DNA of 63,022 nt, filler included, from Globobulimina sp. (taxonomy: Eukaryota): NCBI GenBank assembly GCA_003354225.1. It is 30 parts of 30 records of this genome, joined end to end, with 100 filler letters (N's around TTAATTAATTAA, not from the genome) between each part and the next. Parts side by side here need not be neighbours in the genome. Positions count along the whole stretch, not along the records: positions 6,319 to 8,324 come from PIVH01009813.1; 29 more parts are not named here. The stretch is one strand, 5' to 3'. Every line of letters starts with the position of its first letter. Positions within the stretch are counted from its first letter, which is position 1. Below are positions 4,213 to 8,324 of this stretch, in pieces. The notes below the pieces were generated by a model. That model made no database searches. It was not told the origin of the DNA and saw nothing but the letters and a program-made list of their open reading frames with translations. The position numbers and the translations under genes were made by a program.

Positions 4213-6218
4213 AAATTTTGCCAAGTGATCCAAACTTGCACAACGTACTGTCAAGAAAATTATGCAAGGATACTCTTGACCTTGAGCTGAATCGACAGTC
4301 TTGCAGCGAGGTCGAATGCTTGCATTATTCCAAGAGTGTGCTAATAAGTCTTGCACAATTGCAACTGTACCTGCATATGGTGTCAAAATCCTGACGCTTT
4401 CTGGTGGAAATGCTTTCATTACCTTGCAGATATACCATACCAATACTATGGTTTGTCGAATTTGGTTCATATTCATTCGACTTTCTCCATCAACACTTTC
4501 TTCCGTACCACGTACTGCTAAATAAGCCAATGAGAATCCTTCTGTGCCCCAAGGCAAGCACCAACCATTCCAGTCTTTTGCTTTCTGTTGTTCTTCATCC
4601 AATCCAGTTGTAACCTTGCCTCCATAAAAGGCGTCCGATGTAAAATTTCCCATACAAGCTGACTGTCTGAATGTCTTGGTCAACATTTGCGTGATGATCG
4701 TTGGATTAACATTAGCAACTGGTACTTCCAGTTTGTCAATGGCAGATTCCACTGTGTATGGCATAAGCACTTTCTTCATGATTGGTCCAGGATTGTACAA
4801 TCTTGATTGTGTACTAATTGCGTACAATCGTCCCGATGCTGCATGAGCTTGTACCACTGGATCTAATTGCATTGGATCTCCACATAGTACAATCTGTCGA
4901 GCCACTCTCTCTGTCAATAGTCTACAGGCAACAAAACTATCGGTATCCGTAGCATATGATGCTTCATCAGCCAATAATGTTGTAATATTCAATGGCACTT
5001 TGAACTTTCCCAAGTATGCTTCTCCTTGTCTGAAAGTCATTATTATCAAATTGAACTTACATGAATTCATCACGTCTTTGTATAATGACTTCAAATCTTT
5101 CTTGGTCTTTGCAACTATTTTCTTCTGATTCTGTTTCATCTTGTGTCTGACATTCATATCTCGTTCTATTGCAATGAGATCTGTAATTTGTTCAACTGCT
5201 GCCCAACCTCTGAAGTAAGCTGCTCTCGTTTGAATCACCGAAGGTGTTGCATTTTGATCTTTGAACATGTAATAGTTGATTGAAATCCGTTCTACTTGTT
5301 CGTACGGTATTGGTACTCCCAACGCATCAATTGGTGTCAACAATACGACACGATAACGAGGCAAGTCTTGAACTGTAATACCTGATCGTCTTGTCTGGCT
5401 CGCCATTCGTGCAATTCCATATTCCATCATTAGTACAGCTTTGGTGCACAATGAATAAGAGGCTTCACGAGTTGGTGTTATAACTCCTACCACTTCTTGT
5501 TGACGAACCACTTTCTCATCAATGGTTTTAGTGAAACATACTCTGCCCTCGTCATCGGCTAATTTGTCCAATATTGCTTTGGCTAATGCCATCAAAGTGA
5601 GTGATTTCCCCGTACCAGGTGGACCAATTAAACTAATCAATAGCCGTAGTGCTGAAATTCCATCTCCACAGGTTTCTAATGCCGATTCAATAAAAATGTT
5701 TTGTTCTCTTGTCAGTGTAATCTTCTGACCATCTGGACCACCAAAATAATACTGATCTGGCACTGTAGGTAGTGGTGCCATATTGTTTTCAAATGGTACT
5801 CCTAAGAAGGATGCGATACATTTGTTCTTGACACTGTCTTGTACTGGCTTGGCTCCCATCACAGGGTCTCTTTGATCCCTTCTTTTGGTGTTCTTTGGAA
5901 ATGCTTTCTCTCGTTCCAATGCGGCAAAAATATTGTTCTCCATTACCTGCTCTACCATTTGTCTTTGACTTTTGTGACTCATAGCAGGTGTTATTTGGAC
6001 TGCAATCAATGTTGTCTTCCGAATCTTTTCAATAAATGGCATGGCCGACACTGGATTCAATGTGATAGTAATACGGCGTCCCGCAGCTATCATAGCATTG
6101 TCAGCAGGGGGTGGAATGTCGGTGACTAATCTCGGGTCGGGCGTTTGCAATGCAGTAGATGCCCATAAGGGACCCGTAAGGCTGCTAAACATTGTTTCCT
6201 CTCGATATGACTGCTCTA
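4213..6218 (-). CDS. Upf1/DNA2/NAM7-like superfamily 1 helicase (partial at both ends)
   Basis: Motif I GPPGTGKS, II LLADEAS, III LCGDPMQLDPVV, IV LTKTFRQ, then ILTPY and V TVDSAQGQEY. One open frame spans the whole contig. Confidence 0.9.
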
Positions 6219-6446
6219 NNNNNNNNNNNNNNNNNNNNNNNNNNNNNNNNNNNNNNNNNNNNTTAATTAATTAANNNNNNNNNNNNNNNNNNNNNNNNNN
6301 NNNNNNNNNNNNNNNNNNAATAAATAAAACAAAAAAATAATGTGACATGCCACTTTTTATTTTTCAATATCTCAAAAAATGAAGGAATTACAGCCATGTC
6401 AATATTTGGATATATCAGAATTCTATGAACAAGAATGAAAAAATAG

Positions 6447-7605
6447 ATCGTTGTGCTAGAGTTGGGAAATGATAATAAAACATTACATAAATATAAAATT
6501 GTCAATGAATCGGTGTTAGAATGCCAACTGAGATTAGTTGGTGGTGCCATGCAAATGTATGTTTCTGTTGCATTTGATTTAAAAGTATATAAAAACATAA
6601 AATCAATATTGAAACTGTAGATTTGTGAAAACATTGACTGGCAAAACGATTACATTGGATGTTGTTCCATATGATACAATTCAGAATTTGAAAGCAAAAA
6701 TCCAAGACAAGGAAGGAATACCACCAGAACAGCAAAGGATGATTTTTGCGGGAAAAAGGTTGGAAGACGGGCGGACTTTAAGTGACTACAATATACGAAA
6801 GGAATCCACACTTCATTTAGTGTTACGATTAAGAGCGGGTTATCTGTATATTTTGGATGCAAAAACTGGACATATTTTGCAATTAAAAGATAGTGATATT
6901 ATCAGTGATATTGCTATGAAACAGTTAACTGTTTTAAATGAGAAAAAAAATCAAATTTTTAATGATTTAAATGTTGCTTTTATTGAATTAGAATCTGACG
7001 CTGTAAAATTACAATCAAATTTAAATGTGGTTGTACATGGTGAGGAAGATTTGATTTATAAATGTAATTATGTTTGGAATAATTTTGAAGAAATTAGTAA
7101 TTTGATTATTGAAAATTGTGAAACATATTCAAGAGAAACAAGTATTGAATTTATAGATTTTGGTTTGGATGAACTACAGATTGAAACAGTAGTTTTTAAA
7201 TGGTTTACAATAAATATTGTTCCGCTGATTGAGATGAAGTTAAATGCGAAATTGAGTGTAAATAAAATGAAGGGATTTGTGTTAAAGGAAAGAAGTGAGA
7301 ACAATATGGATAAAAACGAATTACATACATTTCGTCATTATGCTGCAAATATTGGTCAATTGGATACAGGGAGAGTCAGTGGAAAACATTGTGATGACAG
7401 TAAATGGACAGTTGATATTTGTTTAGGTGGGCAATTCACAAATGGTGCATTGGAATTTACTGTTAAAAACACGAAAAAACAAAATAAAAATATTTGTGTG
7501 GCACATTCTATTGGTTCAATGGTTATTTTTTCTGGAAATACATATCATTCTGTTTTAGCAATAAACAACGGAGAAAGGATAAATTTGGTGATTTTTGCAA
7601 GCTGA
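6447..7605 (+). CDS. Ubiquitin-like / ubiquitin / 2OG-Fe(II) oxygenase fusion protein (intron 6557-6620)
   Basis: ...[39 protein letters not shown]...[12 protein letters not shown], then about 250 aa ending in H-C-D...H...R ([25 protein letters not shown]...[18 protein letters not shown]). Confidence 0.85.
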
Positions 7606-7678
7606 TATTAATTTTGAATTATAATATTGAGTAAAGACAGCTCTGTTTTTTACATTAATAAATAAACTTTTCCTGACC

Positions 7679-8324
7679 ATGCAAAACGGAAAAATGTCAA
7701 CTGCTGTTGATATAATTGACACTCTACTGGACGGTTTCAACAACGATCACAGCGAAATAAACTCTACCAAACAGCACACAGACAATGCGTCAAATGATAT
7801 GCACGCAGCACTGACTGGCTATGACAAAGCGCAACAAAGTGTGTTTGTAGTCTCTGAAGAGCTGCCAAAAGACACACCAATAGTAAAAGGCCCAGACTTC
7901 AATGAATCACGCTCTATTGATCACATTCTAAACGCATTCCGAGCCACTGGGTTCCAAGCGACCAACCTAGCATTTGCAGTCGATAGAATCAATGAAATGG
8001 TACTTATTTATTTATAAATTACATCCTCGCACATTCCGTTTCTCGTTTATAATAACAAAGATTCATTGGAGAATGAGCGAGGCCGATGCCAAAAAACCTG
8101 AATATGCGGATATGAGCGCACAACAAGTCACAGACACGCGGGCCACCATATTTTTCGGCTTCACATCGAATCAAATATCATCTGGAAACCGCGAAGTTAT
8201 CCGTTATTTGTGTGAACATAATATGATTGACTGCATAGTAACGACTTGCGGTGCCATTGAAGAGGACGTTATGAAGTGTTACAATCCCCCTTTTATTGGA
8301 AAATTCAGTTTGAAAGGAAAGGAG
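7679..8324 (+). CDS. DHPS: Deoxyhypusine synthase (3' partial, intron about 7999-8061)
   Basis: VKGPDFN...TGFQATNL...INEM and [22 protein letters not shown]...[15 protein letters not shown]. Confidence 0.95.

Follow-up and report, generated by a model that had tools for sequence, protein, structure and literature searches.

Does the point at which a ubiquitin reads in frame into an oxygenase, on a short contig of Globobulimina sp., mark a genuine fusion gene, and if so, what kind of protein would such a gene encode? The DNA analyzed, referred to here as the window, is a 63-kb stretch (positions 1-63022; 63,022 nucleotides) of assembly GCA_003354225.1. It is a chain of approximately 30 contigs of about 2006 bp each, slowly decreasing in length, with N44-TTAATTAATTAA-N44 spacers between them; because the contigs are joined through these spacers, the blocks of the window are not genomic neighbors and their adjacency is biologically meaningless. 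The fusion locus lies on the contig at 6319-8324 (PIVH01009813.1; 2006 bp), where six-frame translation gives the open frames 6447-6620 and 6613-7605. A preliminary description had read it as a ubiquitin-like unit, a ubiquitin, and a 2-oxoglutarate (2OG)/Fe(II) oxygenase in one frame. We find that positions 6460-7605 hold the final two exons of a gene that is transcribed and comes from a foraminiferan-type organism, and that this gene is larger, with only its 3' end at the locus. The best explanation as a whole, held with a probability of roughly 0.6, is a protein in which a ubiquitin-conjugating enzyme (E2) domain, a ubiquitin-like domain, a ubiquitin, and an oxygenase follow one another, and which would be an active hydroxylase targeted by its retained ubiquitin.

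The reality of the fusion can be judged from the assembled contigs of four public sequencing runs (X2, X6, X7, and X8), which were aligned to the contig 6319-8324. The intron of a downstream gene (8000-8060) is removed in contigs of all 4 runs, so the runs act like RNA. The 6556/6621 joint, expected from the intron that the preliminary description had proposed at 6557-6620, was found in spliced contigs of two runs (1 contig each of X2 and X6, with a shorter side of 99 letters in each). No contig of X7 or X8 showed it, but cover of the site is so thin in these two runs that its absence says nothing. The junction between ubiquitin and oxygenase (6840/6841) is bridged by three contigs with far more than 31 letters on either side: X2 record 2 spans 6621-7602 and differs from the window at 10 of 982 letters, X6 record 8 spans 6621-7057 (18 of 437 letters), and X7 record 15 spans 6643-6960 (16 of 318 letters). 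Since X6 and X7 are one sample, the three contigs represent two independent studies; the source organisms of both are slightly different from that of the window. With three bridging contigs, the fusion is therefore not a misassembly, and no transcript of the fusion gene ending between the ubiquitin and the oxygenase was seen in the contigs of the four runs. Thus, the transcript evidence that had been sought across 6556/6621 and across the RAG-YLY junction near 6840 exists, and neither of the two artifacts feared at the outset, misassembly or transcript ends between the domains, was encountered. Loose ends at 6835 reading GGN-stop (X6 and X8) were considered as such inter-domain ends and rejected: they mark where canonical polyubiquitin mRNAs terminate at their 3' ends, and these mRNAs match the ubiquitin part at 88% or above and stack on it at depths in the thousands.

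The 5' boundary of this part of the gene follows from the same alignments. Contigs of X2, X6, and X8 start matching at 6458, their 27, 774, and 93 further upstream letters, respectively, falling off the contig; because of this common start and an AG (3' splice site) at 6458-6459, the exon is placed to begin near 6460, and the codons 6447-6458 are therefore intron read-through. The first exonic codon is a split GAG, its G supplied by the upstream exon, and removal of the intron at 6557-6620 links ATG CAA AT to A TTT GTG. The preliminary description had assigned 33 codons upstream of the ubiquitin to the C-terminal half of a second, diverged ubiquitin-like unit ending LRLVGG. While this half is real, only approximately 30 of the codons are exonic (ELGNDNK...LRLVGG-A), the rest belonging to the intron. 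In tblastn searches, residues 274-308 of protein P0005 from Nonionella stella match 6459-6563 with 63% identity (expectation value, E, 2.9e-9), and its residues 307-630 match 6622-7596 with 62% identity (E 1e-129), whereas residues 1-273 match nothing in the window. Four full-length relatives match this locus only, among all of the approximately 30 window contigs. The remaining exons, which by these relatives encode the E2, a linker, and the N-terminal half of the ubiquitin-like domain, lie off the 2006-bp contig.

The spliced ubiquitin (6549-6556 joined to 6621-6840) comprises 76 residues and differs from canonical ubiquitin, in a comparison by eye, at 10 positions (E16D, E18V, S20Y, E24Q, V26L, D39E, L43M, Q49R, Q62R, and G75A). 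All seven lysines are retained (K6, K11, K27, K29, K33, K48, and K63), as are the L8/I44/H68/V70 patch and R72, and the Pfam ubiquitin profile PF00240 matches over its positions 2-72 of 72 with an E of 3.5e-28 (97.6 bits against a cut-off of 25.4). Instead of the C-terminal Gly75-Gly76, the unit ends with LRLRAG, which runs in frame and without a linker into 254 codons (6841-7602). The spliced translation thus agrees in every point with what had been read by eye (76 residues, 10 substitutions, seven lysines, and an LRLRAG end in frame with about 250 further residues).

The ubiquitin-like piece alone gives a weak Pfam ubiquitin match (E 0.092) and aligns with the ends of the ubiquitin-like domains of the four full-length relatives P0005, P0059, P0060, and P0061. 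Its joint with the ubiquitin reads GG-A-MQIF in the window and GG-A/S-MQ in relatives, as in rhizarian polyubiquitin, where one or two residues are inserted between head-to-tail units, according to the accessible part of PMC3014934. This joint fits an origin from tandem ubiquitins and, to that extent, the earlier proposal that a polyubiquitin gene was recruited onto a hydroxylase; that proposal has to be amended in that relatives have a larger gene with an E2 and that the fusion is old. Arg49 is found in 8 of the 12 ubiquitin units of the family, as is Arg62, both spread over clades, and L8, I44, H68, V70, R72, K6, K27, K48, and K63 are retained in 12 of 12. Within the clade carrying the AG joint, 29 of 36 positions are invariant in the C-terminal half of the ubiquitin, compared to 20 of 40 in the N-terminal half. 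The shared Arg49 and Arg62 together with the conserved positions thus mark the ubiquitin as an old, constrained part of the protein and not a fresh capture. The occurrence of Q49R and Q62R in most of the family, and of the ubiquitin-oxygenase module in both monothalamid and rotaliid foraminifera, likewise speaks for an old fusion and against a recent recruitment. The rhizarian junction insertion also occurs in the runs, where loose ends of canonical polyubiquitin (6621-6662 and 6835) have Ala encoded between units (GG-A-MQIF) and a last unit ending GGN-stop.

The C-terminal domain is predicted, with good agreement between methods, to be a 2OG/Fe(II) oxygenase of the OGFOD2/lysyl-hydroxylase-like kind with an intact HxD...H...R site. 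H183, D185, and H236, the predicted iron triad, are invariant in 21 of 21 rows of alignment A2 and in 12 of 12 rows of alignment A4. R246 is present in at least 90% of the A2 rows (only a truncated row lacks it) and is invariant in the oxygenase-only A4, so that the intact site noted in the preliminary description is borne out by its conservation. R246 follows the distal His by 10 residues, and HxD, His, and Arg align with those of the mimivirus L230 lysyl hydroxylase (HHD; H...R). An AlphaFold2 model computed from a 21-row family alignment (predicted local distance difference test, pLDDT, 92.3; predicted template modeling score, pTM, 0.88) has a double-stranded beta-helix fold. Foldseek returned 371 matches to PDB structures at E<=0.001. 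Those listed are 2OG/Fe(II) oxygenases without exception, led by L230 (E 3e-9), human LH3, and P3H1, with P4H, PHD2, and Dictyostelium PhyA lower.

Searches at the sequence level gave fainter signals in the same direction. The family profile against PDB sequences places the L230 lysyl hydroxylase first (E 0.006); a single-sequence PDB search returned only a Tet-like dioxygenase (E 0.44), and relatives have sub-threshold Pfam matches to 2OG-FeII_Oxy_3, Tet_JBP, and 2OG-Fe_Oxy_2. An hhalign comparison with an OGFOD2-like alignment gave 99.0% probability (E 3.6e-18; 148 columns; query 84-259, template 268-426) over a region that covers the HxD, the distal His, and the Arg. Furthermore, the weak tail of the representative protein search consists of OGFOD2-like proteins: PF25238 was found in 10 of 10 tested, 9 of them above the cut-off, and 8 have ankyrin repeats. 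A lead from a protein atlas agrees with this placement. The affiliation suggested earlier, OGFOD2/lysyl-hydroxylase-like, is therefore upheld by hhalign and by the top rank of L230 in Foldseek, while formal Pfam membership is not reached; on the spliced protein, Pfam recognized the ubiquitin and left the 2OG families below threshold.

An exhaustive representative search yielded 56 proteins at E<=1e-3 and 20 at E<=1e-10. Word-indexed searches added the four full-length relatives and some fragments, and a profile search of a 5.8-billion-protein set returned fragments only, with no new taxa. An organism name is attached to 9 of the 30 proteins looked up, and all 9 are Foraminifera, from four genera (Nonionella stella, Bolivina argentea, Globobulimina turgida, and Reticulomyxa filosa). 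Entries from Reticulomyxa were deposited as 'ubiquitin', 'Fe2OG dioxygenase domain-containing protein', or 'hypothetical protein', the first being the name given by NCBI to P0010. Thus, the architecture is already present in a deposited proteome, which goes part of the way toward the objection raised at the outset, that it might be widespread in annotated proteomes; however, it occurs in Foraminifera only and without functional annotation. In all 18 rows that reach upstream of the oxygenase, window included, ubiquitin directly precedes it. Nine other rows start inside the oxygenase and are uninformative; two of these, P0003 and P0012, open with Met shortly after the domain start, which either a truncated gene model or a genuine lack of ubiquitin could account for. 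A maximum-likelihood tree of 21 oxygenase domains, from which the fragments P0004, P0008, P0011, P0018, P0020, and P0022 were omitted, places the window in a seven-row clade (support 99/93) with oxygenase domain identities of 53-66%. Taken together, these sequences indicate that the window gene belongs to a Foraminifera-restricted family with ubiquitin always directly before the oxygenase.

It is highly improbable that the oxygenase-like domain is non-catalytic, or that the locus is a pseudogene or an assembly chimera. Pfam scores below threshold and a short contig in a fragmented assembly would be compatible with this, whereas the family shows no variation in the metal- and 2OG-binding residues, the frame is open and spliced, the same fusion recurs in independent contigs of other runs, and it is common to relatives in four genera.

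The upstream part of the protein can be read from the four full-length clade members (P0005, P0059, P0060, and P0061; 621-643 residues), which share the order UBE2D-like E2, linker, ubiquitin-like domain, ubiquitin ending RAG, and oxygenase. The Pfam family UQ_con matches each of them with an E of 1e-38 to 1e-43, in addition to two ubiquitin-family stretches each. The E2 domain of P0059 matches UBE2D2 and UBE2D3 with an E of approximately 3e-47 over 145 residues; compared to UBE2D2, its HPN motif is changed to HCN and the catalytic Cys85 to Ser, and HCN with Ser was also read in the other three, within residues ~70-95 of these proteins. More distant clades have an E2 with Cys (P0013 and P0021) or Ser (P0014) and an acidic spacer after the GG, and the sister clade retains GG and has extra ubiquitin-like repeats in place of the E2 (four ubiquitin stretches in P0062). 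By homology, the complete window protein would comprise approximately 620-640 residues, beginning with a UBE2D-like E2 (Ser, HCN), from which a linker of about 80 residues would lead to a complete ubiquitin-like domain. The linker is itself conserved (residues ~146-225 in the four full-length members; also in P0006 and P0062) between the E2 or the ubiquitin-like repeats and the ubiquitin-like/ubiquitin domains. In eight relatives, it has no Pfam match at E<=1, F-box included, and an F-box suspected by eye from LPxEL-like motifs was dropped for this reason.

In this light, we consider it improbable that a stand-alone gene for ubiquitin-like unit, ubiquitin, and hydroxylase is complete on the contig, with its first joint cut and its second not, leaving a permanently mono-ubiquitin-tagged oxygenase. 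The GG-Ala-MQIF joint does resemble a polyubiquitin junction, one X2 contig has only 27 letters upstream of 6458, and translation of a ubiquitin-oxygenase protein could begin at the in-frame ATG at 6549. However, the TAG at 6444-6446 closes the frame with only half a ubiquitin-like domain encoded, the spliced X6 record 8 has 774 more upstream letters, and all four full-length clade members have the E2 and a complete ubiquitin-like domain. The longer protein, for which we argue, appears to represent a real new domain architecture built from known domains in an apparently undescribed family. No description of a ubiquitin-oxygenase or E2-ubiquitin-oxygenase fusion was found in full-text literature searches, although supplementary tables could list one, and none occurs in the accessible parts of PMC11354881, PMC2938197, PMC4327156, PMC6332867, and bioRxiv 10.1101/2022.07.20.500910.

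Table 1. Features of the fusion locus on the contig 6319-8324, in window coordinates.
Feature	Position	Strand	Evidence
Upstream intron, 3' end	6319..6459	+	TAG 6444-6446 in coding frame; contig starts 6319; run contigs match from 6458
Exon part: C-terminal half of diverged ubiquitin-like domain and one inserted Ala	6460..6548	+	Translation, tblastn
First 8 bases of ubiquitin unit (ATG CAA AT), exon end	6549..6556	+	Sequence
Intron, 64 nt, GT..AG, phase 2	6557..6620	+	6556-to-6621 joint in 1 contig each of X2 and X6
Rest of 76-residue ubiquitin, end LRLRAG (G75A)	6621..6840	+	PF00240 E 3.5e-28; lysines, L8, I44, H68, V70, R72 retained
Predicted 2OG/Fe(II) oxygenase domain, 254 residues, OGFOD2/lysyl-hydroxylase-like	6841..7602	+	AlphaFold, Foldseek, hhalign
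HxD of predicted iron triad: H183 (7387-7389), C184, D185 (7393-7395)	7387..7395	+	Alignments A2, A4
Distal His H236 (7546-7548) and predicted 2-oxoglutarate-binding Arg R246 (7576-7578)	7546..7578	+	Alignments A2, A4, L230
Stop codon TGA	7603..7605	+	Sequence

Whether the ubiquitin stays attached to the oxygenase turns on the joint between them, which is AG in 8 and GG in 10 of the 18 family rows. The window clade is fixed for Ala75 (7 of 7 rows), while other clades keep GG. The preliminary description had taken the G75A joint as one that deubiquitinases may be unable to cleave, and this claim is weakened by published probe data: in the accessible part of PMC7391069, G75A probes react 'to some degree' with the tested USP, OTU, UCH, Josephin, and CE-clan deubiquitinases, and G75V probes do not react. 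Several deubiquitinases tolerate G75A, so that "uncleavable" is unproven.

The main rival to our reading is therefore a cleavable pro-protein, which we regard as possible, if on balance unlikely. The ubiquitin would then be a cis-chaperone or expression aid, as in ubiquitin-RPL40, -RPS27a, and -NiSOD, and deubiquitinases would cut after AG or GG, yielding a free oxygenase and an E2-ubiquitin-like-ubiquitin piece with a free C-terminus. GG at the joint in 10 of 18 members is what a processed joint would lead one to expect, and it is kept even where the remaining ubiquitin has drifted; USP21, UCHL3 (readily), and OTU and CE-clan enzymes are among those that accept G75A probes (PMC7391069, accessible part); and non-ribosomal ubiquitin fusions (NiSOD, a membrane protein, actin, and P1) are reported from algae, including rhizarians, in the accessible part of PMC6332867. 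However, Ala75 is fixed in the window clade across domain identities of 53-66%, copies released with substitutions at 10 of 76 positions would put a variant ubiquitin into the pool of the cell, and the ubiquitin is not N-terminal in the full-length relatives. Moreover, the first oxygenase strand begins right after the joint in a two-domain model of ubiquitin and oxygenase, which contains no low-confidence linker (pLDDT 89.9, pTM 0.80). Overall, persistence of the fusion in the window clade appears to be slightly favored.

Besides the GG joints and the accepted G75A probes, several points weigh against a single-chain, active hydroxylase with a retained ubiquitin. The Pfam 2OG models stay under the gathering score in the window protein, with 2OG-FeII_Oxy_5 as the best (E 0.039-0.041; 14.7-14.8 bits against 27), and the OGFOD2-like model PF25238 has no match to it at E<=1. 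The pTM of 0.80 of the two-domain model could stem from the large domain alone. The presence of the E2 in this species rests on relatives and on the 774 unread upstream letters of one X6 contig, and the records of the sequencing runs say '?' or 'RNA? (guess)', so that their RNA nature is taken from spliced contigs. Finally, we infer the activity, the substrate, and the cleavage state alike.

The window family combines features that are known separately from other systems. OGFOD2-like proteins (PF25238, with a 2OG-FeII_Oxy_3-type core) are homologous to the window domain over residues ~84-254, whereas residues ~1-83 are family-specific; the tested OGFOD2-like proteins have N-terminal ankyrin repeats or nothing, and never ubiquitin or an E2, unlike the window family. 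Structural similarity extends to mimivirus L230 (9nev and 6ax7; E 3e-9 to 1e-8; template modeling (TM) score 0.50-0.53 on query and 0.64-0.67 on target, the latter widening to 0.60-0.67 over the top L230 matches) and to the C-terminal domain of human LH3/PLOD3 (TM score 0.55-0.57 on query). Sequence identity to collagen-type lysyl hydroxylases is only 13-18%, with a profile E of just 0.006. In contrast to PLOD, no glycosyltransferase domain is present among the Pfam matches of the window protein and its relatives, which give no signal of a collagen substrate and have N-terminal partner domains from the ubiquitin system.

With respect to the ubiquitin, the arrangement is like that of ubiquitin-RPL40 and ubiquitin-RPS27a and of the algal fusions ubiquitin-NiSOD, ubiquitin-actin, and ubiquitin-P1, namely a single ubiquitin head-to-tail on an unrelated protein without a linker, and rhizarians are already known for unusual ubiquitin fusions (PMC6332867, accessible part). 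Cleavable extension fusions have an N-terminal ubiquitin ending GG; in the window, by contrast, the joint is AG, the ubiquitin has 10 substitutions and, judging from relatives, it is internal, after an E2 and a ubiquitin-like domain. The partner here is a 2OG oxygenase, and the word 'oxygenase' has 0 occurrences in the accessible part of PMC6332867. The E2 of P0059 resembles UBE2D-type E2s; with Ser in place of the catalytic Cys, it is also like PDB chains that were engineered to C85S. Unlike in these, the Ser is natural and accompanied by the HPN-to-HCN change in 4 of 4 full-length relatives, with the domain itself off the window contig.

In PHD-VHL-HIF and in the PhyA-Skp1 systems of Dictyostelium and Toxoplasma, a 2OG enzyme with a prolyl or lysyl hydroxylase fold is linked in function to the ubiquitin system. 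Among the fold matches of the window domain are PHD2 and Dictyostelium PhyA (ranks 25-26). In both of these systems, hydroxylase and ubiquitin machinery are separate proteins, whereas they form one polypeptide in the window family.

How such a polypeptide may work can be proposed as follows. The oxygenase would be active and, depending on O2 and 2-oxoglutarate, would hydroxylate a protein side chain, for example that of Lys or Pro. With its I44 patch, R72, K48, and K63 retained, the ubiquitin would serve alongside the E2-like domain as an in-built module for targeting or regulation, which could bring the hydroxylase to partners in the ubiquitin system, be they RING-type ubiquitin ligases (RING E3s), ubiquitin receptors, or ubiquitin itself. 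The fixed Gly75-to-Ala change in the window clade would slow or block removal of the ubiquitin, so that the domains would remain one chain. A more specific and, in its entirety, rather unlikely version would be an oxygen-to-ubiquitin coupling device: the Ser-E2 and a non-removable ubiquitin would mimic a charged E2~ubiquitin, dock on RING E3s or ubiquitin receptors, and carry an O2-dependent hydroxylase of the lysyl/prolyl type either to these partners or to ubiquitin itself.

The surroundings of the fusion locus were also inspected. A stop-to-ATG distance of 73 nt separates the oxygenase from a deoxyhypusine synthase gene on the same contig (7679-7999 and 8061-8324, + strand; PF01916 with an E of 2.8e-20 on exon 2), which has a 61-nt GT..AG intron at 8000-8060 and runs off the contig end. 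One X2 contig covers both genes, reaching 7726; it differs from the window in the 3' untranslated region just past the stop (7589-7627), where a gap of 24 nt opens at 7604 and a short stretch is repeated, and the TGA appears unchanged. Upstream, the presumed intron (6319-6455) is matched by short contigs of X2, X7, and X8, and a 477-nt contig of X8 aligns with 6354-6449 before running on into unrelated sequence; this region may represent a dispersed repeat or belong to another transcript. The neighboring contig in the window (4213-6218, - strand) has a 701-residue open frame that extends into the spacers and contains a Walker-A-like GPPGTGKS; by eye, it is superfamily-1 helicase-like.

Animals, Dictyostelium, and Toxoplasma link oxygen to the ubiquitin system through hydroxylases and ligases that are separate proteins. 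If the physical coupling works as proposed, the fusion would be the most direct oxygen-ubiquitin coupling yet seen. The family also offers a natural experiment at two positions, Gly75 of ubiquitin changed to Ala and the catalytic Cys of a UBE2D-like E2 changed to Ser, both of which are usually mutated by hand by biochemists. Furthermore, OGFOD2-like enzymes are poorly understood, so the partner domain provides a functional clue. Several foraminiferal species live in hypoxic or anoxic sediment, and the gene family is a testable entry point into oxygen sensing and response in foraminifera, which are important in low-oxygen sediments. Should the coupling device exist in the form outlined above, oxygen level would directly rewire ubiquitin signaling in Foraminifera.

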